64,000 bases of DNA, taken from positions 1-64,000 of the IMG/VR virus record IMGVR_UViG_3300013005_000034; one strand, written 5' to 3'. The DNA is from a virus. Made by a program: the position numbers and the translations under genes. Below are positions 3,246-25,097 of this stretch, piece after piece. How positions within the stretch are numbered: the first letter of the stretch is position 1; the number at the start of each line of letters is the position of its first letter. The notes under the pieces are model-generated. The model had not been told where the DNA came from, made no database searches, and saw only the letters and a list, made by a program, of their open reading frames with translations.

Positions 3246-3419
3246 ATGCAACGTGATTTATATGCAGAATTACGTTCATCAGGTAGTATGACTTCTGACC
3301 AATGCTGTGAAGTTTTAGATTGGACAGAAAAATTACCAATACAAATTATAGGGTTAAATAATGTTAAGGTTTCAATAGTGCAAGGTGTTATTAGGGTAGA
3401 ACCTAATCATGTTGCATAA
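3189..3419 (+). CDS. Cassette 3 cargo, hypothetical protein
   Basis: Starts in the linker; stop TAA overlaps the terminal AAC. Confidence 0.7.
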   Translation: MSTKNISNEEKDNGVLADVMQRDLYAELRSSGSMTSDQCCEVLDWTEKLPIQIIGLNNVKVSIVQGVIRVEPNHVA

Positions 3420-3464
3420 CGTTTTGCGTATAAAAAATCGTTTTAATGTTTTTTATACGCTGTT
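3418..3464. repeat. Short attC-like linker, near-identical to 17502-17548 and 23985-24031
   Basis: gcgtataaaaaa tcgttttaatg ttttttatacgc. Confidence 0.9.
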
Positions 3465-3570
3465 ATAACCAGTAGGGATTATTTAGTAGTAACTTTAATC
3501 GGAGAACTGAACAAAAAATTAAAACAAAAAAAAGCGAATAATTTTTTAATAACTAATAAATAAAAACAAA

Positions 3571-4026
3571 ATGATGACAATTTCTAAATTAGCTTCTGAA
3601 ATCAGGGGCGAAAACAACAAAAAAGAATCTGAAAATGATTACAAAAGATTAACTGATACTTTGAAGCAATTCAATGAAGATTTCAAAGAGGTTGTTTGTG
3701 ATTTAATTAAATGTGAGGTTAAATACGAACCTTGTTTTTGGTATAAAAGTGATAACGATGGGCAATATCATATTTTCCCACACGAAACCAAATTAGATTT
3801 AAAAATGAATGGTGGAAGTGGTGGAACTTGTATTGCTAATTCTATTCTTTTCACATTTAATCACAATGGAGAAACAAGAAAGAAAAGATTATTTTATACG
3901 GAAAATAAAGGTTGGTATTATATTGCTCGTAGAGGAAATCACATGAATGATGATTATTTAATAAAAGATTACAGAAAAGACTTCATATTATACCTTGATA
4001 GTTATTTTGAAGGTGAATATAAATAA
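3571..4026 (+). CDS. Cassette 4 cargo, hypothetical protein
   Basis: 151-aa ORF filling the cassette. Confidence 0.75.
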   Translation: MMTISKLASEIRGENNKKESENDYKRLTDTLKQFNEDFKEVVCDLIKCEVKYEPCFWYKSDNDGQYHIFPHETKLDLKMNGGSGGTCIANSILFTFNHNGETRKKRLFYTENKGWYYIARRGNHMNDDYLIKDYRKDFILYLDSYFEGEYK

Positions 4027-4105
4027 ATCATTTGTGGGTGGGCTTTTTTGTTTTAATTTTTTGAACAATAAAGTTAATTCGGAGCAGTCCACCCCTATTG
4101 GTTAT

Positions 4106-4195
4106 AACGTTTTGCAGCTAACAGAAGTGGCTGCTTGTAAGAACTTCTGAATTAAAAACAAATGCTTGTAGCAGCCATTTTTGTTAGGTGCTGTT
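4106..4195. repeat. attC-like linker 4
   Basis: gcagctaacagaagtggctgct...agcagccatttttgttaggtgc. Confidence 0.8.
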
Positions 4196-4220
4196 ATAGG
4201 CTGTAAAAAATTAAAAAGCG

Positions 4221-4421
4221 ATGGAATTACAACTGATTAACTTAGGTAGAAACAACATTAACAAAACTATTGTTGTGAAAAACGAAAAAGCAATGTGGCG
4301 TGAACTTTCTAAACATTTAATGAGCAAAGGAATTGAACTTTCACCAACTGACGAACCGAATAAATACGATGTGTATGTAGGAATGTTTAGAAATGTTGGA
4401 CAGGTGATTATTAAAGAGTAA
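4221..4421 (+). CDS. Cassette 5 cargo, hypothetical protein
   Basis: 66-aa ORF between the arms. Confidence 0.7.
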   Translation: MELQLINLGRNNINKTIVVKNEKAMWRELSKHLMSKGIELSPTDEPNKYDVYVGMFRNVGQVIIKE

Positions 4422-4453
4422 CTGTGCGTAGGCTTTAATTTTTTATTGCCTAT

Positions 4454-4534
4454 AACGGTAGGAATTTGCGTCTGTTGATTTTTTACCAACAAGACAATAG
4501 ACGCTTAAAAAATCAATAGCGCAAATTTATTGTT
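4454..4534. repeat. attC-like linker 5
   Basis: aatttgcg(t)ctgttgatttt...aaaatcaatagcgcaaatt with one bulged T. Confidence 0.8.
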
Positions 4535-4557
4535 GGGCGCAGTTAAATTAAATCGGA

Positions 4558-4740
4558 ATGAGCAAACAAACAACTTGGAGCGAAAGAGCAAAATGCTATG
4601 ACGCAAAACACACAGAAAATGGAACAATATTATATTATGTGTGCCTTATTACAGGGAAGAAAACAGAATTGAAACACCCTGATAAACTTGCTTTATCGGC
4701 ATATATTGGGCATATAGGGGCTTTAGTGCAGTCCTATTAA
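4558..4740 (+). CDS. Cassette 6 cargo, hypothetical protein
   Basis: 60-aa ORF between the arms. Confidence 0.65.
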   Translation: MSKQTTWSERAKCYDAKHTENGTILYYVCLITGKKTELKHPDKLALSAYIGHIGALVQSY

Positions 4741-4748
4741 TTGCGCCC

Positions 4749-4871
4749 AACGGCTACGGCTATACGCAGTTGCGAACTTAAAAATTAAACAAAATGATAA
4801 AAAAAGAAGATTACTTAAAAGCAAAAGAAACCGTTGAAAAATACGAAGAGCAATTGCGTATAGCCGATGTT
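4749..4871. repeat. attC-like linker 6, contains the start of the next ORF
   Basis: cggctatacgcagttgc...gcaattgcgtatagccg; ATG 4794 in the loop. Confidence 0.8.
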
Positions 4872-5024
4872 ATGCGTAGTGCTAATTGCTACAATGAACT
4901 GAAAGCATTTTTGCAAGAGAAAAAGAAAAGTCCAAGATTATGCGCTTGGGATAGTGTTCACCATCAAGAGATATGGGATAAAATGCTTGAACTCGAACAG
5001 AAGTATTCAGAGCATTACGCATAA
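4794..5024 (+). CDS. Cassette 7 cargo, hypothetical protein
   Basis: Starts in the linker, ends at TAA(C). Confidence 0.7.
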   Translation: MIKKEDYLKAKETVEKYEEQLRIADVMRSANCYNELKAFLQEKKKSPRLCAWDSVHHQEIWDKMLELEQKYSEHYA

Positions 5025-5107
5025 CGGTTGAGGCTATGAGCAGTTGCCTTATAAATACTGCTCAATTAACCACAAATGTTGATAGGCAATTGCTTATAGC
5101 CTTTGTT
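5023..5107. repeat. attC-like linker 7
   Basis: aggctatgagcagttgcct...aggcaattgcttatagcct. Confidence 0.8.
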
Positions 5108-5124
5108 AGCACCAGTTTTTTATT

Positions 5125-5379
5125 ATGAATTACGAAGAAATAAAACAAAAAGTAACGGACAGAGAAATCAACTGTGAACAAGCATTTGAAAGCCTTGCAG
5201 AAATCGGTTATTGTCCAAATTTATTAAACGATGATAACGGTCATTGGGCTGTTAAATTTGATGGCTTTCAAAATGTGCCAATGGGTGATGAACCTGATGA
5301 TATTTCAACTACTTGTTTTATTGAAGCAAAGGATTGGAAAGATAGTATTTACGAAGCACTTGTTTGGGCGTTGTCCTAA
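5125..5379 (+). CDS. Cassette 8 cargo, hypothetical protein
   Basis: 84-aa ORF between the arms. Confidence 0.7.
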   Translation: MNYEEIKQKVTDREINCEQAFESLAEIGYCPNLLNDDNGHWAVKFDGFQNVPMGDEPDDISTTCFIEAKDWKDSIYEALVWALS

Positions 5380-5389
5380 AATTGGTGCT

Positions 5390-5484
5390 AACGTTTTGTG
5401 GCTTTGTGTCTGTTATTTTGGCTTGCAGACACTCGCCTTTAAAGATAAATTTTATAGCCAAAATAATAGCACAAAACCACTGTT
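5390..5484. repeat. attC-like linker 8
   Basis: gtggctttgtg(t)ctgttattttggct...agccaaaataatagcacaaaaccac. Confidence 0.8.
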
Positions 5485-5512
5485 AGTGGCTGGTGCGGTA
5501 AATTAAGAACAA

Positions 5513-5725
5513 ATGTTTAATAACAATCAAATTCAAAAAGTAGAAATAGACCAAGAAAAGAAAAAACTTTATGTCTATTATGTTCAGGACAACTCACATT
5601 TAATGAGTAACCCACCTCCGCCACCAAGTTATTATAGAGAAGTTTTTTCTTTTGATAATTTGGAATTTATTGAAAAGGAATATGCAAAAGTAGAACGAGG
5701 ATTTGAAAAGGTAACGTGGTCGTAG
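5513..5725 (+). CDS. Cassette 9 cargo, hypothetical protein
   Basis: 70-aa ORF between the arms. Confidence 0.7.
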   Translation: MFNNNQIQKVEIDQEKKKLYVYYVQDNSHLMSNPPPPPSYYREVFSFDNLEFIEKEYAKVERGFEKVTWS

Positions 5726-5736
5726 CACTTGCCACT

Positions 5737-5853
5737 AACGGTTCTCGGCTTGGCGAAGTTGCCGAACACAAAACTTCATTAGAATTACAAATTTTTAAAT
5801 TTAGATAAAATGTCAAACGAAGAACTAAACGGCAATTTTGCCAAACCGATGTT
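5737..5853. repeat. attC-like linker 9, contains the start of the methyltransferase
   Basis: tcggcttggcgaagttgccg...cggcaattttgccaaaccga; ATG 5810. Confidence 0.8.
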
Positions 5854-6466
5854 ACCTGCCGTTGTGGGTTCTCAAAGGAAATACCAAATTATTTACGCTG
5901 ACCCTGCTTGGTCACACTATAACGATATGACCGTTACTGTGCAACAGAATAAAGCAAAGGATTTTATTAGTAGAAACCCATATCCAGTAATGTCAAGTTC
6001 AGATATAAAAGCGTTGCCAATAAAAGATATAGCCGATGAAAATTGCATTTTGTTTATATGGACTACGGACTATCATTTATCAAGATGCTGTGAAGTGATA
6101 AAGGCTTGGGGATTTGAATATAAAACAGTTGGTTTTGTGTGGCAAAAGTTGAATAAACAAAATAAGCCTGTATGCTTTATGGGAAACTACACTTTGAAAA
6201 GTGGCGTAGAAATATGTTTATTAGCCACAAAGGGTAAGGGGGCTGCCAAATTAGTTAAGAAACGAAATGTAAGGTCGTTAGTTCAAAGCCAACGTGAAGA
6301 ACATAGTAAGAAACCCGATGAAGTAAGAAATAGAATAGTAGAACTTTGTGGCGATATACCAAGAGTAGAATTATTTGCAAGGGAAAATCACGATGGGTGG
6401 GATGCTTGGGGTAATGAAGTGGAAGAAAGTATCAACTTGGAAACGTCTGCTAACAATGGCAGGTAA
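5810..6466 (+). CDS. MT-A70 family adenine methyltransferase (cassette 10 cargo)
   Basis: IIYADPAW, LFIWT, AWGFEYKT, HSKKP, ELFAR, GWDAWGNE motifs. Confidence 0.9.
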   Translation: MSNEELNGNFAKPMLPAVVGSQRKYQIIYADPAWSHYNDMTVTVQQNKAKDFISRNPYPVMSSSDIKALPIKDIADENCILFIWTTDYHLSRCCEVIKAWGFEYKTVGFVWQKLNKQNKPVCFMGNYTLKSGVEICLLATKGKGAAKLVKKRNVRSLVQSQREEHSKKPDEVRNRIVELCGDIPRVELFARENHDGWDAWGNEVEESINLETSANNGR

Positions 6467-6514
6467 CGGTTTGCGTATAAGAGCCGTTTTTTCAATGGCT
6501 TCTTATACGCTGTT
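6465..6514. repeat. attC-like linker 10
   Basis: gcgtataagagcc...ggcttcttatacgc. Confidence 0.8.
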
Positions 6515-6570
6515 ATGCTCTCGTTTTGCGTGGGTGGGCTTGATAAAATATTAACTTAAAAAATATACAA

Positions 6571-6807
6571 ATGGAAATTGAAACAGTATCAGATTTAGCA
6601 AATGTAATAGCCGATTGGATTGGTGTTTATGGAGCTTGTAAAGACGAAGGTAAAAGTGATGGGTGCGAATTTTCTGAAAAGAAAGTTGCTTGTTGCAGAG
6701 TAGGATTTACAATGCACTTAGAGGAACGAATTAGAGAGGCTGTTGAAAATGATAAGAAAATTGAGGAAATGAATTTGCGTGAGCTGGCAAAGCAAAATGG
6801 AGCATAA
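6571..6807 (+). CDS. Cassette 11 cargo, hypothetical protein
   Basis: Ends at TAA(C) of the right arm. Confidence 0.7.
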   Translation: MEIETVSDLANVIADWIGVYGACKDEGKSDGCEFSEKKVACCRVGFTMHLEERIREAVENDKKIEEMNLRELAKQNGA

Positions 6808-6808
6808 C

Positions 6809-6894
6809 TCCAATCTTTGCGCTATATTAATGGAAATAAAAAGTTATTAACAATAGTATAATTAGATTATTTTATTACCTATATTTACCACAAT
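6809..6894 (+). promoter_or_regulatory. Conserved array-terminal element, copy 1 (attI-like site plus probable promoter)
   Basis: tttgcgctatattaatggaaataaaaagttattaacaatagtataatt shared with 18412-18496 and 25098-25183. Confidence 0.7.
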
Positions 6895-6909
6895 TAAAAA
6901 CCGAACAAA

Positions 6910-7344
6910 ATGCAAAATAACAAAACAGAATTTAAGATTAGGAATTTTTTTATAGATGAAAAAAATTATCTTCAAATTAAGAGTAATGATAAATTAATAT
7001 TCTTAACTCTATACTTAAATGGAGAAAAAAGAGGTAGGAATATAGGAACTGTTACTAAATCTACCCGAACAATATTTATGAAACGCAAAGTAGATAAACA
7101 TTTATTTAGGAAATTGAACGCTTGGGGGTTCAACGATTATGTTTTAAGAAATCAAAGTACATTCGATTTTGTGAGTTTAAGCGATGATAAAGGAAACCAT
7201 TGGAGTAAGATACCTGTAAGTATGATTTTAGAGGGAGCTACATACTTAAATTTTAAAAGTCAGGGATTTGAATTACAAAGATTTGTTTCTTTGGAAGATT
7301 TAGAGAAATATAAAGTAAAAAAAGAAGATAATACGAGATTTTAA
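6910..7344 (+). CDS. Hypothetical phage protein
   Basis: 144-aa ORF downstream of the terminal element. Confidence 0.75.
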   Translation: MQNNKTEFKIRNFFIDEKNYLQIKSNDKLIFLTLYLNGEKRGRNIGTVTKSTRTIFMKRKVDKHLFRKLNAWGFNDYVLRNQSTFDFVSLSDDKGNHWSKIPVSMILEGATYLNFKSQGFELQRFVSLEDLEKYKVKKEDNTRF

Positions 7345-7345
7345 G

Positions 7346-7837
7346 ATGAATACTGGAAACTATATGATAGATGGGGATGATGGTAGCCATTGCTTTTCTC
7401 CCTATCACAATTCAAGTAAATGTGAACTTTGCAAAGAACTTGAAGAAGAATTGGAAAAAGAACAAGAATTAGACGAAGATTTGGAAAATGATAATAACGA
7501 TGTTTTTGAATCTGAACACAAATTGCCTTTTTTAGTTGCTGAATATCCATTGAATTTAGATACTAAACACAAATGGATATGCTTTAAAGTTGGAACTTGC
7601 GAAGGACTTTGGAGATGCACCTATACGAGTTATGAGATTTTAGCACTTAAAAACAAAGAAAAAGGTAACGGACACCTCAACGATGTTTTTCAATGGTTTG
7701 AAATGAGTAGCAAAAGAGATAATAAAACTCTAAAGGTAAAAGAAGTTTGGAACGAGCGATTTCAAAACCACTTGCAAAAAAGAGGATTTAAAAGATGTTC
7801 GGCTTTTGATTTTGAAAAAACTTTTAAAAATAATTAA
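7346..7837 (+). CDS. Hypothetical protein, possible GNAT-like C-terminal domain
   Basis: KEKGNGHL...NERFQNHLQKRGF resembles GNAT motifs A/B; weak. Confidence 0.45.
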   Translation: MNTGNYMIDGDDGSHCFSPYHNSSKCELCKELEEELEKEQELDEDLENDNNDVFESEHKLPFLVAEYPLNLDTKHKWICFKVGTCEGLWRCTYTSYEILALKNKEKGNGHLNDVFQWFEMSSKRDNKTLKVKEVWNERFQNHLQKRGFKRCSAFDFEKTFKNN

Positions 7838-8140
7838 ATGGGAATGTTTGATGATTTGGTAATTGACAAAGTTCACTTACCTGACGAGTTGAAAAATTAT
7901 GAAAATGGTTGGCAGACAAAATCGCTTGATTGCTATATGAATTTTATTAAAATTGATGAAAATGGTAGTTTGTTTGAAACTATATGTCATTATCACAATG
8001 AAAAAGAAAGTCCAAGAAGAAAATATCATATCGGAGAAGTAAGATTTTACCAAAATATAAATGATGTTTGGTATGTCTTTGTCGCCTTTTTTGATGATGG
8101 AAAGATGTTTAGATTAATACAAGTAGAGCCAAAAAAATAA
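7838..8140 (+). CDS. Hypothetical phage protein (MGMFD...QTKSLD type)
   Basis: N-terminal motif familiar from small phage proteins. Confidence 0.7.
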   Translation: MGMFDDLVIDKVHLPDELKNYENGWQTKSLDCYMNFIKIDENGSLFETICHYHNEKESPRRKYHIGEVRFYQNINDVWYVFVAFFDDGKMFRLIQVEPKK

Positions 8141-8144
8141 TTTT

Positions 8145-8966
8145 ATGGAAAAAATATTTAAAATTCAACATATAAACGATTTACTTATCGTTGAATTTAG
8201 AAAATTAGTAGCCGAAGATTGCGAATTAGTATCTGATTCGGGATGTTTAATATCTATGCAAGAAAAATACATTAGCAGGAAAATAGTTTATTCGGTTAAA
8301 AAAGAATTAATCCAAGAAATAAAAGATTTTATCTCTTTAATTAAAGAAAAGAAAAATCATTATTTAGAATTTATGGCATTTGATGGTAAATTATTTATAA
8401 AAATAGAGGACAAATACCTTCGTGATGATTTTATCAAATACATAGATTTAATTGCTAATGAAATAGTATTGGATAAATCTAAATATTTAGATTTTAGAGG
8501 ATGTAAAACTGAACAAGATAAAGATAAGAAAATAGAAAAATTAAAAAAACAGGTTGATTTCTATGAATCTGAAAAATTGAGTTTTCTTGATGCTCATTTG
8601 GATTATCTAAATATGGAAATTGAAAAGTTAATTAAATATATCAATAAAGAAACTGAAAATGAACTTGTCATTTATATTACGAGTGGAGAATGTATAGAAA
8701 ACATAAGCGATGAAAAACTACTGGATTTATCAAGAGAATCAAAAAAACTATCTATTGAACTTGCAGTATTATCTGAACGAAGAAATGTAATAAATGAGGA
8801 ACTATCTAAGTTAAAAAGGCAAATTGTTATGGATAGGCTAATTTCAAATGATTTTACCATAACTGATGAATACGGAAATAAATATACTTTGCCTGAATCA
8901 ACAACTGAAAGAGTAAAAGAAAAATTGAACACGAGCTTTATTCCTAAAAAACATATTAAGATATAA
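8145..8966 (+). CDS. Hypothetical coiled-coil protein
   Basis: 273-aa charged ORF. Confidence 0.7.
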   Translation: MEKIFKIQHINDLLIVEFRKLVAEDCELVSDSGCLISMQEKYISRKIVYSVKKELIQEIKDFISLIKEKKNHYLEFMAFDGKLFIKIEDKYLRDDFIKYIDLIANEIVLDKSKYLDFRGCKTEQDKDKKIEKLKKQVDFYESEKLSFLDAHLDYLNMEIEKLIKYINKETENELVIYITSGECIENISDEKLLDLSRESKKLSIELAVLSERRNVINEELSKLKRQIVMDRLISNDFTITDEYGNKYTLPESTTERVKEKLNTSFIPKKHIKI

Positions 8967-9046
8967 TTTTAAAACTGATTATCAATACTATATAATAAAA
9001 AATTAAAATTTAACATTTACAATATTGACAATTAAAGTAAATTGAC

Positions 9047-9054
9047 TATATTTG
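9047..9054 (+). promoter_or_regulatory. Bacteroidota sigma-70 -7 element
   Basis: TATATTTG (TAnnTTTG) in an intergenic gap upstream of 9095. Confidence 0.55.
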
Positions 9055-9094
9055 TAAAAGTTTTAAATACCATTAAAAAATTCTACGGTCAAAA

Positions 9095-9592: not shown

Positions 9593-9602
9593 AAATAACA
9601 CT

Positions 9603-11320: not shown

Positions 11321-11503
11321 ATGAAAGACCAAAAATTTTTAATAGTAGAAAGCGCAAAAGAAGTGAATGATTATTTAGAAAAAGGATGGGAAGTAGTTTC
11401 GGTTACGCCTCAATCAGTTTCAGTTTCAGTAACTTCTTCTTCTTACGTTTACAAAGAATTAGTAGGGAAGTTTGCAGTAGTAATTCAAAAGATAAAACAA
11501 TAA
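11321..11503 (+). CDS. Small hypothetical protein
   Basis: NDYLEKGWEVVSV pattern. Confidence 0.55.
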   Translation: MKDQKFLIVESAKEVNDYLEKGWEVVSVTPQSVSVSVTSSSYVYKELVGKFAVVIQKIKQ

Positions 11504-12081
11504 TGGAAAATATTATAAACACAGGATATTATATGCTAATAGTAGATGATTCAGAGATTAAAAAGGAAACCTATTGTTATGATTCTATAAACAATATTCT
11601 TGTTTTCTACAAAGGTAGCATGAAGAATATTGGATTTCAAAAAGTGATTAGTCATTTACCACTCAATAACTCACCAATACTTGAAAATGTACCTCTTTTA
11701 CCACCACTTGAAGATGATAATATACATTTTGGAGATTTAAGAAATGTAGATGTAGATTCTTTTATGAGTGGCTACAACAAAGCCGAAGAGAAGTATAATT
11801 TAACTTTAGATAAGTTGCTTGACTTATACATTGAAGAAAGCGGTTATGGTATGGATATGTGGAGTAAAGAAGAAAATGCAACAATGAATATTGTAACTAA
11901 AATCATCCAATCCCTCCAACAACCAAAGATGCCTGTTGGGTTTAAGTGTGAAATAGAAGCAATGAACATAGATGAAATTAGAGAACAAGGAAAAGGTTTT
12001 TTAAATACTAATACAAAGAAATTAAAAACAATAACCAACTCACAAGGTCTTACTCAATTAGTAGGGGAATACATTTATTAA
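11503..12081 (+). CDS. Paralogous family (HLPLNNSPILE...VGEYIY), copy 2
   Basis: Start at ATG 11503 (MENIINTG). Confidence 0.8.
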   Translation: MENIINTGYYMLIVDDSEIKKETYCYDSINNILVFYKGSMKNIGFQKVISHLPLNNSPILENVPLLPPLEDDNIHFGDLRNVDVDSFMSGYNKAEEKYNLTLDKLLDLYIEESGYGMDMWSKEENATMNIVTKIIQSLQQPKMPVGFKCEIEAMNIDEIREQGKGFLNTNTKKLKTITNSQGLTQLVGEYIY

Positions 12082-12100
12082 CTAAAATCAAATAAAAAAA

Positions 12101-13129
12101 ATGAGAACATTAGCATCAATTCAAACAATAAAAGACATACAGCCAATAGAAAATGCCGATAGTATTGAGGTAGCAAGTATATTGGGTTGGAAAGTAGTAG
12201 TGTTGAAAAATCAATTCAAAGTTGGCGATAAGGTTGTTTATTGCGAAATAGATAGTTTATTGCCAGATATTGAAATATTTTCGTTCCTAAAACCAAGAGG
12301 TATGAGAATAAAAACTATTAGATTAAAAGGTCAAATAAGTCAGGGGATTTGCTTTCCGCTATCCACCGTTGAGTATTTTGGCTTACTTCCCGAAGATATG
12401 ATTGAAGGGCAAAATGTAACCGAAGCAATAGGTGTCGTTAAACACGAACCACCTATCCCAGCTTGTTTAAGTGGAGTTATGAAAGGAAAGTTCCCTTCGT
12501 TCATTCCTAAAACAGATGAAACAAGAGTGCAAGTATTACAAAAACTATTAGATAAATACGAGGGAACTAATTGCTACATTACCGAAAAAATTGATGGTAG
12601 TTCCGTTACCTATTACTTAAAAGATGGGGAATTTGGTGTTTGTAGTCGAAATATGGAATTGTTGGAATCCGAAGAAAATACATTTTGGAAAATGGCAAGA
12701 CAACTTAACATTGAAAACAAATTAAGGTCTTATGGAAAAAACATTGCTATACAGGGTGAATCGTTTGGCGAAAAAATACAAGACAACAAACTAAAAATAA
12801 AAGGGCATAGGGTATTATTTTTCAATGCTTTTGATATTGACAGGTTTGAGTATTTTAATTTTGAACAGTTTGCCTTACTAATGGCAAATTTAGGATTGGA
12901 TAATGTTCCTATTTTAGATTTCAACTATAAACTATCTAACAGTATTGATAGAATTATTGAAATGTCAAAAATAAAAAGCACCTTAAATAAAGATGTTTGG
13001 GCGGAGGGAATAGTAATTAGACCTCACAAAGAACGTATTGATTTGATGCTTTCAAATGAAAATTTCAACAATGGTCGTGTAAGTTTTAAAGCAATAAACC
13101 CTGAATTTTTAATTAAGTATGGAGAATAA
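12101..13129 (+). CDS. ATP-dependent RNA ligase, DRB0094 family
   Basis: N-terminal OB-like domain; TEKIDGSS (motif I), EGIVIR (IV), SFKAINPEFL (V). Confidence 0.9.
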   Translation: MRTLASIQTIKDIQPIENADSIEVASILGWKVVVLKNQFKVGDKVVYCEIDSLLPDIEIFSFLKPRGMRIKTIRLKGQISQGICFPLSTVEYFGLLPEDMIEGQNVTEAIGVVKHEPPIPACLSGVMKGKFPSFIPKTDETRVQVLQKLLDKYEGTNCYITEKIDGSSVTYYLKDGEFGVCSRNMELLESEENTFWKMARQLNIENKLRSYGKNIAIQGESFGEKIQDNKLKIKGHRVLFFNAFDIDRFEYFNFEQFALLMANLGLDNVPILDFNYKLSNSIDRIIEMSKIKSTLNKDVWAEGIVIRPHKERIDLMLSNENFNNGRVSFKAINPEFLIKYGE

Positions 13130-13619
13130 AAAAGTATTATTTCTTGACCACGATGGAGTAATTTGTTTGGCTACGGAGTGGGGTAGTCGTTTTAAAAACA
13201 AAGAGGGTTTTGATTCTTTATTTGATAGATTCAATCAAAAGGCAATAAATGTTTTGAATGAAATAATTGATGAAACCGATTGCGAGATAGTTATTAGTTC
13301 TGATTGGAGATTTCATTGCTCATTATCAGAAATGCAACAACTATATAAAATAAGAGGAATAGCAAAACCCCCTATGGCATATACTCGTTCTGATTTAGAT
13401 TGGAAACTATTTTTAGATGTTAATCCCAATAATGAATTAGAAAAAACAAGAGTTATGGAGATATTAAGTTATGTAAAGGAATATAATTTAGTTAATTGGG
13501 TAGCAGTAGATGATATGGATTTAAGTTTATTAGGGAATTTCGTTCATACTCCAAAATCTATGGAGGGAATTAAGCAGTCAGGTGTAAAAGAAAAAATAAT
13601 TAAATTTTTAAACAAATGA
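13119..13619 (+). CDS. HAD phosphatase (Swiss Army Knife RNA-repair type)
   Basis: FLDHDGV, ISSDWR, WVAVDD motifs; overlaps the RNA ligase stop. Confidence 0.85.
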   Translation: MENKKVLFLDHDGVICLATEWGSRFKNKEGFDSLFDRFNQKAINVLNEIIDETDCEIVISSDWRFHCSLSEMQQLYKIRGIAKPPMAYTRSDLDWKLFLDVNPNNELEKTRVMEILSYVKEYNLVNWVAVDDMDLSLLGNFVHTPKSMEGIKQSGVKEKIIKFLNK

Positions 13620-14769: not shown

Positions 14770-14770
14770 T

Positions 14771-14962: not shown

Positions 14963-14985
14963 TAACAACTAAAAACAAATAACAA

Positions 14986-16622: not shown

Positions 16623-17104
16623 AAAACAAATGGAACAATTAGAACAACAATTAAATGAAAAAATGCTACAAATAGCAAAAGATTACATTCAGAGAAGAAA
16701 TGATAAACCTTTTGAGCAATACGAGGAGGCAAATTATCTTAATGAAAAATACCTTTCAGTAAAAAATGAATTTGAAAAGGAAGGCGATTTTTATATAATC
16801 TTAAATGAGTGCATAAAAGTAGTTTTAGGAAAAACAAAAAAAAATACAATATGAAAATTAAAAAAAGAAAAATTAAAAACCCTTGTACTATTTGTGGTAA
16901 AGAAGTTCGTTGGGGAATTGATGGATGCCCTATTGTTGAAAAAGGCAAAGATTTTGAAACTTTATTGGGTGGAGTAAAAGGTATGAAGCATTATGAGTGC
17001 AAATAAAATTTTTAACATAACGGTTTGCAAATAGGCAATCGTTTTAATGTTGCTTATTTGCTGTTAGCACCAATACGGATTATTAACAACAAAAATTAAA
17101 TAAG

Positions 17105-17491
17105 ATGAAAGAATTTAAAAAAGAAAATTTAGAATTTTACTTACCTGATACATTTAAAGGATTAAGTAAAGATTATTTACTTGAATGTATCTTCAATGAT
17201 GAGATACAGAAAAAATGGAATCCTGATGTTGGAGATATTATTATTGGTTGCACTGGCAATATTTTTGTAATTGGGGTTAAAGAAACATTACATGAAAGTA
17301 TTGGTGGGGCGAGATATTATTTTGGTGGTGGCTCTTGTAATAGAGATGGTGGTAATATATTAGACAGCACATTTTGTTATACCGCAAATGAATCAGGTAA
17401 GTTTTATCACACATTAAAAGGTGAAATTCAAAATATTTATCATTCGTGTATTAGAGATTTTAGATACGTTCCTTATCCACACGAAAGGTAG
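17105..17491 (+). CDS. Cassette cargo, hypothetical protein
   Basis: Between arms gttagcaccaatac/gtattggtgctaac. Confidence 0.75.
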   Translation: MKEFKKENLEFYLPDTFKGLSKDYLLECIFNDEIQKKWNPDVGDIIIGCTGNIFVIGVKETLHESIGGARYYFGGGSCNRDGGNILDSTFCYTANESGKFYHTLKGEIQNIYHSCIRDFRYVPYPHER

Positions 17492-17575
17492 TATTGGTGC
17501 TAACGGTTTGCGTATAAAAAATCGTTTTAATGTTTTTTATACGCTGTTATATTTAGTTTTTTAAAACTTTTACAA

Positions 17576-17761: not shown

Positions 17762-17809
17762 ATATAACCGCTAACAGATATATGTAGTTTTAACACAATA
17801 TTTAATAAT

Positions 17810-18058: not shown

Positions 18059-18221
18059 ATTACAACTAACGGTTTGCGTGTATAAGAAGTGGCGGATTAG
18101 AACTCCAAAACTTTCAGCAAACGCAGAACTTAATTAGAATTACAAAACATTAAATAACCAAGAAACCCGCCATTTTTTATACACGCTGTTAGTGGCTGGG
18201 CTTTTCACAAATTGAAACAAA

Positions 18222-18398: not shown

Positions 18399-18411
18399 CC
18401 TTGCCACTAAC

Positions 18412-18496
18412 TTACTTCTTTACGCTACAATTAAGGAAATAAAAAGTTATTAACAATTGCATAATTAAATAAAATAATTACTAATTTTGACCACAA
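18412..18496 (+). promoter_or_regulatory. Conserved array-terminal element, copy 2
   Basis: cgctacaattaaggaaataaaaagttattaacaat...ctaattttgaccac, contains TAATTTTG. Confidence 0.75.
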
Positions 18497-18751: not shown

Positions 18752-18802
18752 AAAATCACAAACAAACAATAAACCAAAACACAAATCAAAATCACAAACA
18801 AC

Positions 18803-19996
18803 ATGAAAAGACAAACCACCCTCGCAGAATTGGTAACGGAGTTGAAAGACCAAAATCTGCAAAAAAAAGATTTCGTAGTTCCTGCAAATCTTTTATCAAT
18901 GGAAAATGGAAAATTAGTAGTGAACAATTATAGTTCAAACGATTCTCTACAAAAGATACTTACAGAAGTAGGTATTCAATCAGAGGATTCCAATAAACTA
19001 ATTTTAAATTGCTTACCTGTAATTCATCAAAACTTATCAGATAAATGCGATATTCCTCGTAAATACTATAATCGTATTCAAGGACTAAAAGACCAAACAC
19101 TAATTGATACAAATGTTACTCATTGGTTAAAATCCATGAAAGGAAATGTTTTTTTAAGAACATTTATTGACAAAGATGAACAAAATGGATTCGCAAGAGC
19201 ATTACTTTCAGATAGATATAACGTAATTGATAACTTTGATGTTTTATTAGCTACACTTGAAGCAGTTAAGAATAGTGGATTAAACTTAAAGATTGAAGAT
19301 AACGGTTGTGATTTATCAGAATCTAAAATGTATGTAAGATTTGTTGCTCCTGAAATTGAAATTAACGCACCCGATTTATTAAAAAACTACAAAAATCCAA
19401 AAGGTAATAGTAATGTAGGTGATGGTATTATTACTGGATTTGTTGTTACTAATAGCGAAATAGGGCAAGGTTCATTTAATATCAGTCCAAGAGCTGTTAT
19501 ATTAAAGTGCCAAAACGGAATGGTATTTAAAAATGATGCCTTTGGTAAAATTCACTTAGGTTCAAAAATGGAACAATATTCTCAAATTGATTGGAGCGAA
19601 GAAACTAAAAGAAAAAATTACGAGTTAATTCAGGCGCAAGTAAAAGATGCGGTTAAGAAATTCACAAGCGAAGATTTTTTAGCACAAAAAATAAGTGAAT
19701 TAAACGAATATGCTGAAATTGAATTAAAACATCCTATTGAAACAGTTAAGAATGTTAGCAAATTATTAAACATTACCGAAGAAAAAGAAAAAAGTATTCT
19801 TGACTTCTTTATGAGAGGTGGCGATTTTAGTTACATGGGAGTAAGTCAGGCATTAACATTCTTTGCTCACGAAACAAAAGATGCAGACGAAGCTCACGAT
19901 TTAGAAACAACAGCTATTGAAATTTTACCAAAAATTAAAGAGTTGGATAAACCCTCTGTTTCAAAATCAGTTAAAACTCAAATGAGTTTAAATTAA
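18803..19996 (+). CDS. DUF932-family protein
   Basis: RALLSDRYNVIDN, NSEIGQGS, CQNGM motifs. Confidence 0.75.
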   Translation: MKRQTTLAELVTELKDQNLQKKDFVVPANLLSMENGKLVVNNYSSNDSLQKILTEVGIQSEDSNKLILNCLPVIHQNLSDKCDIPRKYYNRIQGLKDQTLIDTNVTHWLKSMKGNVFLRTFIDKDEQNGFARALLSDRYNVIDNFDVLLATLEAVKNSGLNLKIEDNGCDLSESKMYVRFVAPEIEINAPDLLKNYKNPKGNSNVGDGIITGFVVTNSEIGQGSFNISPRAVILKCQNGMVFKNDAFGKIHLGSKMEQYSQIDWSEETKRKNYELIQAQVKDAVKKFTSEDFLAQKISELNEYAEIELKHPIETVKNVSKLLNITEEKEKSILDFFMRGGDFSYMGVSQALTFFAHETKDADEAHDLETTAIEILPKIKELDKPSVSKSVKTQMSLN

Positions 19997-20010
19997 TAAT
20001 TTAGGAAATA

Positions 20011-20040
20011 AAAAAAGGGGGAAATCACGCCCCCTTTCTA
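20011..20040 (+). terminator. Probable intrinsic terminator
   Basis: aaaggggg-aaatcacg-cccccttt hairpin after the DUF932 gene. Confidence 0.55.
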
Positions 20041-20150
20041 AACCAAAGACACTATGTCAAAATAACACTAACGCCACAATAGGCGATACTAAATTATAAA
20101 TTAAATAAACAATTAATTAATTTTTATATTATACAACTAAATTGTAAAAA

Positions 20151-21038
20151 ATGAACATCAGTCAATCACTACTAAAATCCCTATTAGATTATCGTAATGG
20201 AAAAGAATGTGGATTAATATTTAAGGCAAAGTATATAGATGGAAGATACGATTTATTTCCTCCCTCCGATGCACAAAATGTAGGTGCATGGTTTGAATAT
20301 ATGGCTACTGGTAGCATACCTAAAAATGGTATAGTGCCAAAAGCAGAATATATGAAAAGAGGTAAAGATGAAAATGGCAACCCTGAACTTACTGCCGATT
20401 ATCGCTTAATGAGAGAACATATAGATAATTTCAAAAAGAATATGGAGAGTTACTCATTAGATATTATTACAGCAGGAGAAGATATTAAAGTTTTATATCC
20501 TAATTCTTTAGAAGAATATGGAGAAGAAGTTTATTTAACAGGAACTCTTGATGTAAGAGCAAGAGCAAATAAAGATATTTTTGCTAAATACCAAGATACT
20601 ATCGTTAAGGTAGCTTCAAAAGATGAAGAAGTTATTATTGATATTAAAACGACTGGATTGTTAGACGATAAATGGTCGGAAATGGGCTGGGAGATTAATA
20701 ATCTATCAAATAAAATTAAACTTGTTACTCAACCTGTTCACTATAAATTTATTGAGTATTTAAAAACAGACAAAGATGTACCTTTTATATTTATGTTGTT
20801 CAATTCTAAAAACTCAAAAGATGCAAGAATTATTGATTTTAAAGTTGATAGTTCATCTTTTGAAGAACATAAAGCGTTTATTGAATCGGGAGTTGAAAAT
20901 ATGTTGCATTTGAGAAAATATGGTTTCAAAGCGTTGCCATCACTTGAAAAATGTTCAAAATGTCCTTTGAATACTGATTGTAAGTTTAAAGCAGAAATTT
21001 CGCCAATAACTATATTTTATTTTGCTCATCAGGTTTAA
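20151..21038 (+). CDS. PD-(D/E)xK (RecB/Cas4-like) exonuclease
   Basis: GTLDV...IIDIKTT and C-terminal CSKCPLNTDC. Confidence 0.75.
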   Translation: MNISQSLLKSLLDYRNGKECGLIFKAKYIDGRYDLFPPSDAQNVGAWFEYMATGSIPKNGIVPKAEYMKRGKDENGNPELTADYRLMREHIDNFKKNMESYSLDIITAGEDIKVLYPNSLEEYGEEVYLTGTLDVRARANKDIFAKYQDTIVKVASKDEEVIIDIKTTGLLDDKWSEMGWEINNLSNKIKLVTQPVHYKFIEYLKTDKDVPFIFMLFNSKNSKDARIIDFKVDSSSFEEHKAFIESGVENMLHLRKYGFKALPSLEKCSKCPLNTDCKFKAEISPITIFYFAHQV

Positions 21039-21173
21039 TATATTATGTTTGTATCGCACAATTCAACTAAAATGAAATTACAAAAAAAATATTTAAAAAA
21101 AACCTTTAAGCAAGTAGGAATCCTCTATTTTTAGTTGATTGTGCAACCTACTTGCGAGAAGGGATTTTTAATC

Positions 21174-21986
21174 ATGGAAACATCATTAATTATTGAAATT
21201 TCATCTTTGCCTTGTATAGATGATAAAAGAGGGCGTTATAGAACAATAGAATTATATCCAAAAATTAGTGGAATTTATAAAATAACATCTCCTAATGGCT
21301 CTATTTATATTGGTTTATCAAATGATATTTATTATAGGATTTATAGTTGTTATAAGAAATTAAGATGTAAGGCTCAACATAAAATATATAATTCTTTAAT
21401 TAAATATGGTATTGATAATCATAAATTTGAAATTATTCATATTGTTGAAAATTTTGAAGAATATGAGAAAATTAAAATTTTAAGAAAATTAGAAATAGCT
21501 TATATACAAAAATATAATTCATTTTATGGAAATAATAATTTTGGAATGAATTTAACAAAAGGAGGCGAAATAATTGAATTAACAGATGAAACTAAAAAAA
21601 TAATGAATGATAAGAAAAAAGGTAGGATTGTTTCCCAAGAAACAAGAGAAAAGTTAAGGAAAATAAATTTAGGTAAAAAATTATCACAAGAACATAAAGA
21701 TAAAATTAGTATATCTCATAAAGGAAAAATTGTTTCAGAATTAACAAAAAAAAGATTAAGTGAATCTCACAAAGGAGAAAAACATAGTTTTGAACGAATA
21801 CAAAAAAAAATTGGAAGTAAACAAAATCCTGAAACAATAAAAAAAAGAATTGATAAGATTAGCGGTATTAATCATTGGACAAAAAAATATGGCGGTCATT
21901 CAGAGCAAACAAAGATAAAAATAAGTATATCACTCAAAGAAAGGCATAAAAAAATGTCTAATAAGAATGAAAAAAACACTAATTAA
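21174..21986 (+). CDS. GIY-YIG homing endonuclease with NUMOD3 repeats
   Basis: SGIYKIT...IYIGLS; repeated SQETREKL/SEQTKIKIS. Confidence 0.85.
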   Translation: METSLIIEISSLPCIDDKRGRYRTIELYPKISGIYKITSPNGSIYIGLSNDIYYRIYSCYKKLRCKAQHKIYNSLIKYGIDNHKFEIIHIVENFEEYEKIKILRKLEIAYIQKYNSFYGNNNFGMNLTKGGEIIELTDETKKIMNDKKKGRIVSQETREKLRKINLGKKLSQEHKDKISISHKGKIVSELTKKRLSESHKGEKHSFERIQKKIGSKQNPETIKKRIDKISGINHWTKKYGGHSEQTKIKISISLKERHKKMSNKNEKNTN

Positions 21987-22278
21987 AAGAAAAAAATTAA
22001 GTAAGAGTTTAAGAATAAAAATATTTGAGAGGGATAATTATGAATGTCAGTTGTGCTATGACAATTTAATAGATAAAAAAGATTTAAGAGTAATAGACCA
22101 TAAAATACCTCTTTCAAAAGGAGGCAGTAACTCAATATCAAATCTTTGGCTACTTTGTAATGATTGTGATAAAAGAAAGAAAAATAAATTGTTTCCTGAA
22201 TTGATGAAACAATACATAAAGGGTAAGTTAAATTATCTTTCTAATTTAAGATTTAATGGAAATCGTTATAATAAGTGA
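21967..22278 (+). CDS. HNH endonuclease
   Basis: RDNYECQLC...DHKIPLSKGG...NLWLLCNDC. Confidence 0.85.
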   Translation: MKKTLIKRKKLSKSLRIKIFERDNYECQLCYDNLIDKKDLRVIDHKIPLSKGGSNSISNLWLLCNDCDKRKKNKLFPELMKQYIKGKLNYLSNLRFNGNRYNK

Positions 22279-22504
22279 ATATGAAAATTTACCTTACATA
22301 GTTAAAAGCGAGAATGGAGAAATATATCAGTTAAGTTATTATGATACTAAAAAAAGAATTAAAAAATACAAAATATTAATACCTAAAGAGCATAACGGAA
22401 GTATGTATTATAGAATTAATAGTGAGAGATATTCAGATTATAGATTAAAAACAATTGAGATTAAAGTTTATAAAAGAATTAACCTAAATAAAATAAAAAA
22501 ATGA
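22256..22504 (+). CDS. Hypothetical protein
   Basis: ORF track. Confidence 0.6.
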   Translation: MEIVIISEYENLPYIVKSENGEIYQLSYYDTKKRIKKYKILIPKEHNGSMYYRINSERYSDYRLKTIEIKVYKRINLNKIKK

Positions 22505-22791
22505 AACCATTAAAAATCAAAGGAGTTAAATTAAAAAAAGGAGAAGAATTATTACATTATTATCCTTTTTGTTATTGCATAGCAAAATCTACTGAAAGTA
22601 GTGCTTTATTTGTAATACCTCCACAAAATAAAGGAACTGTTGCAGATAATGGTTATTTAAGCGTTTGTTTTGATTATAAATTATGTAAAGATGTAAAAGT
22701 AGGAGATTGGTGCGAAGTAGGTTATATAAGTGATTATAGTAAAGGAGAAAATAAAGTGCTTAAAATATTAAAATCTAAAAAAAATAAATAA
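22501..22791 (+). CDS. Hypothetical protein
   Basis: ORF track. Confidence 0.6.
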   Translation: MKPLKIKGVKLKKGEELLHYYPFCYCIAKSTESSALFVIPPQNKGTVADNGYLSVCFDYKLCKDVKVGDWCEVGYISDYSKGENKVLKILKSKKNK

Positions 22792-23023
22792 TATGAATAA
22801 AAAAATTAATATTATAGGAATCATTATTTTTTTATTTTCTCTTTCATATTTAACAATATACACTATGATTATTGATTTATATTATGGTATATCTATGGGA
22901 TTAATTTCAATTTTATTTATAATAATTATATTAAAAAGTAAAAAAAAGAAAAATGAATAAGTATGGAAAATAAAAATACTTTCTATGGGATTGAAATATT
23001 TAAAAACTAAAAAAAATAAAAAT

Positions 23024-23061
23024 AAATAAAAACAAACAAAATGAAAACAACAAAAACAAAA
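23024..23061 (+). repeat. 38-bp direct repeat, left of array 3 (second copy 25205-25242)
   Basis: aaataaaaacaaacaaaatgaaaacaacaaaaacaaaa at both sites. Confidence 0.7.
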
Positions 23062-23085
23062 ACAAAAATGAAAACAACAAAAAAA

Positions 23086-23313
23086 ATGGAACACAAAAAT
23101 TTGAATACAAAAGAAACCGCCAATAGCGATTTAGGTGCTGTTAGCGGTAGTTTGAGGGAACAATCTCTTGAATGGTTTTTCGCAAAAAGTGAAATTGAGA
23201 AACACGATTTAAAAGACAAACACTTTCCAAACACACCAATACAGCATAGTAGGCAATGGGGATTTCATTTCACTTTTGGTCAAATTGAGGAAATGTATGT
23301 TAAAGAACGGTAA
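23086..23313 (+). CDS. Cassette cargo with linker-derived N-terminus
   Basis: MEHKNLNTKETANSDLGA-V-SGS crosses the GTT at 23140. Confidence 0.7.
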   Translation: MEHKNLNTKETANSDLGAVSGSLREQSLEWFFAKSEIEKHDLKDKHFPNTPIQHSRQWGFHFTFGQIEEMYVKER

Positions 23314-23391
23314 CAAATTACCGCTAACGGTTTGCAAATATATTTCAGTTGCGGTAAAAATAATAATAACTTAATTAAATAAATAAAAAAA

Positions 23392-23946
23392 ATGGAAAAC
23401 ACAAAAAAAGCATACAAAGAAATATTTAAAGTCTTAAATAAATATAAAGATGTTATTGTTATTGATATTAAAACATTAGAGGAAAAATCAAAACTCCATT
23501 TATTTGGATTAGAATTAAAAGAAGTTTACGGACTTGAAATCAATGAGAAACGTATCAATAATATGCAATATCAGGAATTAAAAGACAACGTATATCTAAC
23601 TTTTATTGATAGCGAAACGAGAACTATAAGCTGGGAAGATAATGGCAAAAAACCAAAAGGAGAAAGTTTGATTAAGTTTAGTTATCCAACAGGAGCTTAC
23701 ATTTTTGGTGGAGATTATCCTACTGATTTTTTCCAAAAGTTTTTTTTAGAATTGAAATCATTTAATCCCGATTATTGCGATAGCGCCAATAAAAGCCTGT
23801 ATTTTAAATTGGAAAATGCAAAAGAAATATTTAATAGTTATGATTCAATAATAAAAAAATATTACGAATTAAACAAAGAAGATATTAAACAAAGACAGAT
23901 TTTAAAAATGAAAGCCGATTTAGAAAAATTAGAAGCAAGTAAGTAA
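23392..23946 (+). CDS. Hypothetical protein in a damaged cassette
   Basis: 184-aa ORF; right arm present, left arm missing. Confidence 0.75.
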   Translation: MENTKKAYKEIFKVLNKYKDVIVIDIKTLEEKSKLHLFGLELKEVYGLEINEKRINNMQYQELKDNVYLTFIDSETRTISWEDNGKKPKGESLIKFSYPTGAYIFGGDYPTDFFQKFFLELKSFNPDYCDSANKSLYFKLENAKEIFNSYDSIIKKYYELNKEDIKQRQILKMKADLEKLEASK

Positions 23947-24135
23947 CGCACCCACAGGCGGGGAGGGTTTTAAAACTTGTACCTAACGGTTTGTGTATAA
24001 AAAATCGTTTTAATGTTTTTTATACGCTGTTATAACCAGTAGGGATTATTAAGTACAAATGCTCATTCGGAGAAGTAAACAAAAAATTAAAACAAAAAAA
24101 GTGTAGGGAATAATTAATCAATTAAATAATAAAAA

Positions 24136-25008
24136 ATGACAACAGAAAAACAATTTGGCGACTTATCACATTTTGCAAAAAGAGATGTAGAACTTTTTAG
24201 AAGTTCAGACCAAAACGAAACCGCTATCTATTTTACGGAATTAGAAGATAAGCAAAGAGAAACTGCGAAAGCGTTTTTTGAAATACTGCGATTTGGCTTG
24301 GATGGTGGCGACCATCAAATATATGTTCGTTTCCCAAATACTGACCATTTTGTAGAAATGATTGGTGGTGGATTTGGTTCAGGTAGAGGGTATATGAAAG
24401 TAGCTGATGGTAAAAATGTTTGGGAGGATAAAAACAAAGCACCATTTAGAATCTATTCACATAATAAGGATTTACTTTTCATAATTGGTAGAACTGATTG
24501 GACTGGAGAATTTAATTTTATGACAAAAGTTGCAAGTTATGATAAAGGAAATCCATTCAATCATCCTTATCCTAATGAAACATTTGTGAATTTCAAAGAG
24601 ATTGAAAAAGCACTTTCAATGAAATATTTAAAGATACCTGAAAGTATAAGAAAGATTGAATATTGCTACAAAACTAAAGATACAACACCAAAATATTTTG
24701 TAGTGGATTATCCAGCTTACAATTTCAAATATGACAACCATAGATTTTTTGTGATTGAAAATGAACATATAAAAGAATTTGGGATTAAAAACTTTGTAAG
24801 ATACAAAGATGGTGGAACAACTATCATTACTGTAACCGATGAAAACGGAATTGAACACAAATTCTTTTCACCAACATCATTGCCTGAAAAAACGCTTTGT
24901 GAAAAGTGGGATAAAACTGAATTGATAGAAGCAAGTGAAACTGAAAAGCAAAAACTTACAGAACTTTTGAATTTGAATGTAGAACCAAATATAGTTGACA
25001 AAGAATAA
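24136..25008 (+). CDS. Cassette cargo, hypothetical protein
   Basis: 290-aa ORF inside a shell homologous to cassette 4. Confidence 0.8.
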   Translation: MTTEKQFGDLSHFAKRDVELFRSSDQNETAIYFTELEDKQRETAKAFFEILRFGLDGGDHQIYVRFPNTDHFVEMIGGGFGSGRGYMKVADGKNVWEDKNKAPFRIYSHNKDLLFIIGRTDWTGEFNFMTKVASYDKGNPFNHPYPNETFVNFKEIEKALSMKYLKIPESIRKIEYCYKTKDTTPKYFVVDYPAYNFKYDNHRFFVIENEHIKEFGIKNFVRYKDGGTTIITVTDENGIEHKFFSPTSLPEKTLCEKWDKTELIEASETEKQKLTELLNLNVEPNIVDKE

Positions 25009-25097
25009 TCATTTAGTCATTTGTGTGTGGATTTTTTTGTTTTAATTTTTTGAACGATAAAGTTAATTCGGAGCAGTCCACACCTATTGGTTATAAC

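Follow-up and report, generated by a model that had tools for sequence, protein, structure and literature searches.

A reused non-coding shell encloses unrelated genes within phage arrays of hairpin and gene modules

The way in which integron cassettes come by their genes is an unsolved problem, and the precise shuffling of accessory and counter-defence genes by phages is only partly understood. Both problems are raised by a stretch of viral DNA (positions 1 to 64,000 of IMG/VR virus record IMGVR_UViG_3300013005_000034; this whole 64,000-nucleotide stretch is called the window below) in which two gene cassettes have common left and right non-coding ends and carry different open reading frames (ORFs). 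We call the pair of ends the shell and the enclosed ORF its cargo; shell A lies at positions 3462-4108 and shell B at 24029-25097. A natural series in which one shell holds different cargos can be mined for the mechanism by which genes are loaded, and can also be used to flag unknown cargos as candidate counter-defence genes. What is this shell, and how might a single frame come to hold different genes? The reading we favour, at a probability of about 0.45, is that the shell and its relatives form structural modules on the transcribed strand, where they enclose individual ORFs and double as joints for ORF-by-ORF exchange. More generally, the reuse of the shell across related phages points to a modular, integron-like swapping of accessory genes.

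A sequence-only reading of the window had proposed two cassettes with common ends and an inner inverted repeat around each gene, and both proposals are borne out. A self-BLAST of the contig matches the left flank 3417-3532 to 23984-24100 with 89.7% identity over 117 nucleotides (nt; E value 1e-32), and the right flank 4028-4108 to 25017-25097 with 93.8% identity over 81 nt (E 1e-30). The outer inverted repeat, P1, pairs 3462-3477 with 4093-4108 in shell A (16 base pairs (bp), one of them G.T) and 24029-24044 with 25082-25097 in shell B (15 of 16 positions paired). The inner inverted repeat, P2, pairs 3512-3531 with 4044-4063 in shell A and 24080-24100 with 25032-25052 in shell B, and its arms of 20-21 nt are 100% complementary in both. 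P1 and P2 are both present in the minimum free energy (MFE) RNA fold of each whole cassette. Of the six occurrences of the motif GTTATAAC in the window (1.9 are expected), four are the termini of the shells.

Similarity between the shells extends as far as the start codon and begins again at the stop codon, so that the shell comprises all of the 5' and 3' non-coding sequence flanking its gene, with a leader of about 110 nt and a trailer of about 82 nt. On the plus strand, shell A is thus made up of a left end at 3462-3570, whose A/T-rich leader runs to the start codon, a cargo ORF of 151 amino acids (aa) at 3571-4026 and a right end at 4027-4108. The corresponding parts of shell B, on the same strand, are 24029-24135, a 290-aa cargo ORF at 24136-25008, and 25009-25097. 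The trailer alone folds into a hairpin. For shell A (4024-4108) this hairpin forms on the plus strand only, at -28 kcal/mol (z -4.4) versus -11.3 kcal/mol for the minus strand (z -0.1), and in shell B the right-end hairpin differs from that of shell A by a compensatory change (G-C to T-A).

The two cargos had been called apparently unrelated, and we find nothing to join them. Their best BLASTP match has an E value of 6.4, profiles of their families (12 sequences for cargo A and 27 for cargo B) align with an hhalign probability of 0.4%, and their AF2 models differ in architecture, cargo A being a helical hairpin plus sheet (pLDDT 81) and cargo B mostly beta (pLDDT 88.5). With no cross-family matches among 21 cargos either, the idea that cargos A and B are distant homologues, the observation that would have spoken for simple duplication and divergence, is ruled out. 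Cargo A belongs to no Pfam, PHROG or PADLOC family, and cargo B to no Pfam or PHROG family and finds no usable match in the protein atlas. Homologous clusters number 21 for cargo A (E<=0.001) and 111 for cargo B, and neither model has a Foldseek match in the PDB at E<=0.001.

The plainest account of such a pair would be an ordinary local duplication of a regulatory region, followed by gene replacement or divergence, that has no special mobility or structural function. The same hairpin precedes both copies in the window, and expression signals are often common to phage intergenic regions, as this account would have it. We nevertheless consider it very unlikely, given the distribution of the shell, the unrelated cargo families, and the stem covariation and strand bias described further below. 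When occurrences of the shell were collected, as the sequence-only reading had recommended, exact-word scans located 35 copies in public contigs and the window; they lie on many independent contigs with different flanks and carry 19 cargo types. The first 27 copies comprise the two in the window, two in IMG/VR (L001 and L002) and 23 metagenome loci found with a 20-nt right-end word, which is also present in three contigs of metagenome-assembled genomes (MAGs). A left-end word recovered five IMG/VR loci, three of them new, and among these L036 and L038 bear diverged shells.

A cargo ORF could be read in 21 of the first 27 copies, and these fall into 15 families between which there is no BLASTP match at E<0.05; later loci add four further cargo types. 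Pfam names three cargos, a Tad3 anti-Thoeris inhibitor (2e-23), an SPFH/Band_7 protein (1.6e-20) and an RNA_ligase (5e-12), the last being the shell cargo in L033 and L040. The rest have no Pfam name, and PADLOC returned nothing for 15 cargos. We also observe that the gene at 25249-26064, just 3' of shell B, matches PHROG 200 ('lipoprotein'), as does the SPFH/Band-7 cargo of L001, so that the matching kind of gene stands outside the shell in the window and inside it in L001.

Despite this variety of cargo, the 27 aligned right ends are nearly invariant over about 82 nt, from just after the stop codon to a terminal TAAC, and diverge right after that TAAC. Conservation of the search word is built into the scan; between shells with different cargos, mean identity over the other 65 nt is 90.5%. 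The notion that the right end evolves more slowly than the cargo is not supported, since right ends in three same-cargo pairs are 96.7, 100 and 95.2% identical versus 92.0, 99.6 and 95.2% for the cargos themselves. The left end is recognisable in 12 of the 27 copies; six have a right end only, although at least 650 nt of upstream sequence is present, and nine loci are too short to tell. Two copies with a Tad3-like cargo (92% nucleotide identity) have the left end in one case and none in the other. As a separate observation, a short G-rich box lies on either side of the cargo, forming a direct repeat that resembles GCGTAGGC on the left, after P2, and GTGGGTGGGC on the right, before P2. Examples are found at 24101-24108 and 25023-25031 of the window and in L002, L015 and L020, and both copies in shell B carry an identical T variant. 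This repeat could be the scar of cargo insertion into a hairpin loop, or it could be due to chance.

The shell does not stand by itself. It is the longest, because of its added 20-bp second stem (P2), and the most widespread gene-module frame of a general array in which short hairpin modules alternate with gene modules. The hairpins have the form xAAC-G(K)TTT-stem-loop-stem-T-GTT(A/G), and in some of them the loop is the invariant TCGTTTTAATG. They occupy 14 places on the plus strand of the window, clustered at 2.6-6.5 kb, 17.0-18.2 kb and 24.0 kb, two related phage contigs have comparable arrays on their coding strand, and such hairpins recur in many fetched loci. All told, we recorded 76 distinct sites of 48-212 nt (median 118.5) with xAAC-G...T-GTT ends. 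The ends of the gene modules pair with each other over 12-16 bp (the 5' end reads GTTA-nnnn-CAGT and the 3' end ATTG-nnnn-TAAC) and include a fixed G.T wobble in which left position 11 (G in 86% of sites) faces T (95%).

This end pairing is specific to each module. Of 48 consecutive site pairs, 31 have at least 10 paired positions out of 12 between the 12 nt after GTTA and the 12 nt before the following TAAC, compared with 4.6% of 4,989 non-cognate combinations. Five of these 31 well-paired cases are shell copies, and the others represent more than 15 different 4-nt cores. Beyond P1, inner pairing in ordinary gene modules is weakly stronger than in non-cognate controls (-15.9 versus -13.4 kcal/mol, p 0.007). 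Because this excess is driven by shells, we regard P2 as a feature of the shell rather than of gene modules in general.

In the window, the first array, like all the modules listed here, is on the plus strand. It begins with a TAAC..GTTA hairpin at 2599-2665, followed by a CAAC..GTTA hairpin at 3118-3246 whose loop holds the start codon of ORF 3189-3419, and by a hairpin with loop TCGTTTTAATG at 3417-3465. Shell A comes next, and its terminal TAAC is common to the hairpin at 4105-4196. A short relative of the shell (4193-4456, with ORF 4221-4421) then combines a 9-bp P1 plus extension with a short A-rich/T-rich inner pairing. The remainder of the array, 4453-6515, has hairpins at 4453-4535, 4748-4872, 5022-5108, 5389-5485, 5736-5854 and 6464-6515 and paired-end gene modules at 4532-4751, 4869-5025, 5105-5392, 5482-5739 and 5851-6467, the last of which holds an MT-A70 methyltransferase gene (5810-6466). 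Three ORF starts (3189, 4794 and 5810, including that of the methyltransferase) lie in hairpin loops; these ORFs read through the 3' arm of the hairpin and the left arm of the next module, which places module borders inside coding sequence. The invariant loop contains an ATG, and the short ORFs that start from it differ in length and appear incidental.

The second cluster starts at 17018-17066 with a hairpin that keeps loop TCGTTTTAATG on a different stem. Adjoining it is a minimal shell relative at 17063-17504 (14-bp P1; ORF 17105-17491, 128 aa), then a hairpin at 17501-17549, and a 125-nt hairpin lies at 18067-18191. The hairpin that precedes shell B (23984-24032) is 87% identical over about 50 nt to Polaribacter phage P12002L, and in a BLASTN comparison with a phage collection this 50-nt match was the only one for shell B, while shell A had none. 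The sequence-only reading had described an upstream linker common to both cassettes. The repeat itself is real (49 nt, at 3417-3465 and 23984-24032), but it stands alone at 17501-17549 with 98% identity and no shell after it, and it is a separate hairpin module rather than a part of the shell. Complete shells inspected on other contigs sit 3' of different hairpins.

If the modules were maintained for their structure, their stems should change in sequence and yet continue to pair, and this is the pattern seen. In an alignment of 11 short hairpins with loop TCGTTTTAATG, 11 of the 12 stem pairs have changed on both sides, and the 11-nt loop is invariant. Stem cells are paired in 93.8% of cases, compared with 71.5% after shuffling (0 of 500 shuffles reach the observed value) and 37-56% when the partner is slid. 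P2 is formed by four different sequences (the window shells, 4193-4456, L038 and L036), with the A-rich and T-rich arms swapped in one of them, and P1 of the module at 17063-17504 has compensatory TA to GC changes in both arms. The structures are also strand-biased. Among 63 hairpins detected by Watson-Crick pairs only, the coding (top) strand is more stable by over 1 kcal/mol in 50, less stable in seven and within 1 kcal/mol in six (Wilcoxon p 2e-8), and the MFE folds contain 250 G.U pairs on the coding strand versus 143 on the other.

Searches of Rfam, which has no attC model, gave nothing at the gathering score and two chance-level rows at E<=1. Sites resembling sigma-70 promoters number 17 in the shell and hairpins against 16.5 expected, terminator-like sites number three against 2.5, and the Bacteroidetes-type -7 motif, in the form we take its consensus to have, is absent from both.

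Where, then, do related genomes begin to differ? Mapping the breakpoints, another step that had been proposed for this locus, placed them at module borders and at start and stop codons. When the plus-strand half of the contig was compared by BLASTN with all fetched loci, 81 of the 200 alignment ends in array regions fell within 6 nt of a module border, where 5.4% were expected, and most of the remaining ends coincide with cargo start or stop codons, which indicates that exchange proceeds ORF by ORF. Contigs from four lake metagenomes, with uncovered parts of 2400-6700 and short-sided joints in run X7 set aside, branch at 3417, 4105/4108, 4197/8 and 5389, and their summed contig depth has a several-fold peak on the hairpin plus left end. 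In run X7 we further note a summed contig depth of about 817 on the hairpin at 5736-5854 (5712-5855) versus about 6 on neighbouring genes, from which this type of hairpin must be highly repeated across the community.

The same-cargo copies add a second constraint, in that the sequence directly outside the shell differs on both sides; the downstream hairpin thus does not travel with the gene as an attC site would. Empty shells, which the sequence-only reading had advised seeking, did not turn up among the 12 shells with a recognisable left end, where at least 445 nt separate the left inner arm from the right-end word, nor in an IMG/VR scan for a left inner arm 1-31 nt from a right inner arm (0 matches). 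A scan for circle junctions or tandem shells, made in IMG/VR and not in raw reads, likewise gave 0 matches, and directly abutting hairpins, a possible empty target, are absent from 23 GTTRYAACG sites.

The genome that carries these arrays is a phage and not a bacterial chromosome or an integron. A single 73,651-bp contig of 28% G+C, whose first 64 kb make up the window, constitutes this IMG/VR virus record; it is rated about 62% complete, and its minus-strand half carries genes for tail fibres, baseplate-like proteins and an endolysin. On the plus-strand half (1-34 kb) there are about 70 small ORFs, mostly without known function, among which an MT-A70 methyltransferase, an RNA ligase with its HAD partner, HTH regulators, and HNH and GIY-YIG endonucleases can be recognised. 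The host probably belongs to the Bacteroidota and the source is probably lake water, because the sequencing runs that contain the window stretch are labelled lake water, one shell-bearing contig is included in a Bacteroidota MAG, a cargo B homologue takes its name from a Bacteroidia MAG, and one of the hairpins matches a Polaribacter phage. The phage is probably lytic.

Several neighbouring features deserve mention. The RNA ligase (PHA02142 OB fold plus RNA_ligase) is followed, within 12101-13619, by a HAD domain of the 'Swiss Army Knife' RNA-repair proteins. ORFs 1013-1825, 11386-12081 and 26861-27481 have several 45-105-nt segments in common (66-82% identity) and form a paralogous family in the accessory region. 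An 810-aa ORF on the minus strand (51589-54021), which adjoins tail-fibre-like genes and has no family match, contains at least about 19 degenerate 45-nt (15-aa) repeats. A family of 89-nt repeats that start with TAAC and are 78-92% identical occurs at 6805-6893, 18408-18496 and 25094-25182, the last copy lying directly 3' of shell B. The copies at 18408 and 25094 contain TAATTTTG, which fits what we take to be the Bacteroidetes -7 promoter consensus, and the 89-nt repeats are probably promoters for the gene blocks downstream.

The tyrosine recombinase family PF00589 has no match at E<=10 in the contig, about 62% complete as it is, and Pfam scans of the ORFs agree; nor does it have a match at E<=0.01 in the related 44-kb phage G001, rated 100% complete, or in G002 (48%). 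The Y1 transposase TnpA (PF01797) has no match in the contig. The sole transposon gene there is a TnpB gene on the minus strand (36037-37212), of the IS605 type (OrfB_IS605, Cas12f1-like TNB, HTH). Its insertion point is the 3' end of endolysin ORF 37315-37956, and its ends (near 37340-37300 and 36070-36040) carry similar hairpins. The 9-mer GTGGGTGGG has four occurrences in the contig and is common to these TnpB end hairpins, the right end of shell A (4034) and position 6530.

With this TnpB in view, might the shell be a non-autonomous transposon, either resembling a miniature inverted-repeat transposable element that duplicates the palindromic GTTATAAC, or derived from IS200/IS605 and moved in trans? 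Its 16-bp terminal inverted repeats, the GTTATAAC on both sides, flanks that differ among copies, and the 9-mer that the TnpB end hairpins have in common with the shell right end are what such an element might show. However, a palindromic GTTATAAC makes a target duplication indistinguishable from an extension of the inverted repeat, the contig has no TnpA or other transposase besides TnpB, the polarity of the hairpin arms is opposite to that of the TnpB ends, and the resemblance to those ends is confined to one 9-mer. Furthermore, the other gene modules combine the same architecture with cassette-specific arms, unlike a transposon family, and six loci have the right end with no left end. We therefore judge a transposon unlikely, as we do plain duplication, to which we would give slightly less credence still.

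The reading that we prefer instead concerns the transcribed strand. Every ORF would sit in a separate mRNA domain closed by a stem, and this domain might serve processing, stability or translational insulation. The ends, because they are conserved between co-infecting phages, might also act as joints at which whole ORFs are swapped, much as has been proposed for the stem-loop elements of T4-type phages, and such a role would explain how 19 unrelated genes came to occupy one shell. The repeats, their pairing, the covariation, the strand bias, the many unrelated cargos and the breakpoints at module borders are observed directly; from these we infer a function of the RNA and an exchange that is homologous rather than site-specific. 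The lack of a recombinase in the contig and in its 100%-complete relative counts for this reading.

Five considerations weigh on the other side. Selection on RNA does not alone account for the position of the paired ends directly against the hairpins, with GTTA/TAAC common to both, an arrangement that integron-like insertion predicts exactly. When DNA parameters are used, 45 sites still favour the coding strand versus three, and since G.T also stabilises single-stranded DNA (ssDNA), the bias does not tell RNA from top-strand DNA. Neither a recognisable promoter nor a canonical terminator is present in the shell, which by composition is thus not one of the T4-type elements. Homologous exchange would move shell and cargo together without explaining how an ORF first entered a shell. 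Finally, with the contig only about 62% complete, a recombinase could lie in the missing part.

Those considerations lead directly to the strongest competitor, in which the arrays are an integron-like, structure-specific system, a phage version of the clusters of attC sites lacking integrases (CALINs). A phage or host recombinase other than IntI1 would act on attC-like ssDNA hairpins, cut gene modules out as circles and insert these at GTTA/TAAC, and the shell would be one successful cassette frame. Qi et al. 2023 (PMC9892861) reported predicted attC clusters without an integrase in 17 phages, including Polaribacter phage P12002L. The site P12002L_attC1, predicted by HattCI only, belongs to the present hairpin family, since its loop and ends match in our alignment (sequence from Table S3 of PMC9892861). 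A family member has thus been called attC, and other phage attC sites in the same account were recombined by IntI1. To this can be added the 76 sites, attC-like in their xAAC-G...T-GTT ends and variable, covarying stems, the conserved second box (T 95%, G 86%) with its fixed G.T, and a cargo of accessory and counter-defence genes (methyltransferase, Tad3, RNA ligase) such as integron cassettes carry. The cognate 12-nt arms in 31 of 48 site pairs are, moreover, what a circle crossover inside the R box would yield.

Set against these points, P12002L_attC1, the only family member for which the cited article reports a test, was the one site out of the six tried that gave no IntI1 recombinants (PMC9892861, section 3.4). 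That article describes attC bottom strands as the more recombinogenic, and here it is the top strand that folds better. No tyrosine recombinase was found in the contig or in the related 100%-complete phage, the differing flanks of same-cargo copies imply that no hairpin is linked to the gene, neither circle junctions nor tandem shells were found in IMG/VR and no empty shell was seen, and five of the 31 well-paired cases are simply copies of the shell. This account explains the cognate arms more directly than the one we favour, lacks an enzyme, and runs counter to the strand bias; on balance it is possible but doubtful. The suggestion in the sequence-only reading that the locus may record how cassettes are built is upheld as regards the reused frame, the attC-like palindromes and the cognate arms, and is not supported as regards the integrase, the IntI1 test, the strand and a gene-linked hairpin.

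A more adventurous version, which we offer with the same degree of doubt, is that the phages have a cassette system of their own that is independent of IntI. The gene modules would be marked out by the bipartite 12-bp stem (GTTA/TAAC and CAGT/ATTG) with its obligatory G.T, beside hairpins whose loop is read by a protein. A structure-specific enzyme working on ssDNA or RNA would cut and join the modules, and the shell would be a standard chassis for counter-defence genes. If true, an IntI-independent cassette system in phages would make the genesis of cassettes directly observable.

How do these arrays compare with systems that are already understood? The processing stems that bracket rRNAs and the intergenic RNase III sites of phage T7 offer one parallel, in that complementary flanks form a long stem in the primary transcript. 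Hairpins of the T7 type lie between the genes of a polycistronic early transcript. The likeness of these stems to the shell might best be taken as a functional analogy only. We found no description of the shell or of the bipartite arm motif in print, although supplementary files may hold more.

The closest functional analogue is the promoter early stem-loop (PeSL) elements of T4-type phages, in which a sigma-70-type promoter is joined to a terminator stem-loop (PMC2839356, PMC4122927). As those accounts present them, PeSLs are short conserved non-coding motifs that flank ORFans in hyperplastic regions and have been proposed as vehicles of modular shuffling, and insertions, losses and replacements of genes between related phages break at the motif; in our arrays too, breakpoints fall at the modules. 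PeSLs, however, are promoter-terminator composites, whereas no such motifs occur above chance in the present modules. PeSLs are also described without a long-range stem around the ORF, and mini-circles have been shown for PeSLs (PMC2839356, PMC4122927) and not for the present modules.

With integrons and CALINs, the resemblance lies in architecture. As in the systems described in PMC9892861, small ORFs form one-directional arrays separated by imperfect palindromes that end in ...AAC and GTT.... As in attC sites, the palindromes have an inverse core and a core and keep their structure while the stem sequence varies. Each cassette begins with sequence complementary to the inverse core of the site that follows, and methyltransferases are found among the cargo. 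Unlike integrons, the arrays have no detected integrase with attI and Pc, although an integrase is absent from CALINs by definition. They differ too in that complementarity extends over 12-16 bp and includes a second conserved box with the fixed wobble at position 11, folding favours the top strand, breaks between modules fall on either side of the hairpins, and the shell adds a 20-bp inner stem together with a conserved leader and trailer. In form the arrays thus follow the rules of integron cassettes, with no integrase found, and the integron mechanism is unproven for them. The findings also suggest that at least some of the CALINs that attC predictors have reported in phages constitute a distinct class of structured module specific to phages.

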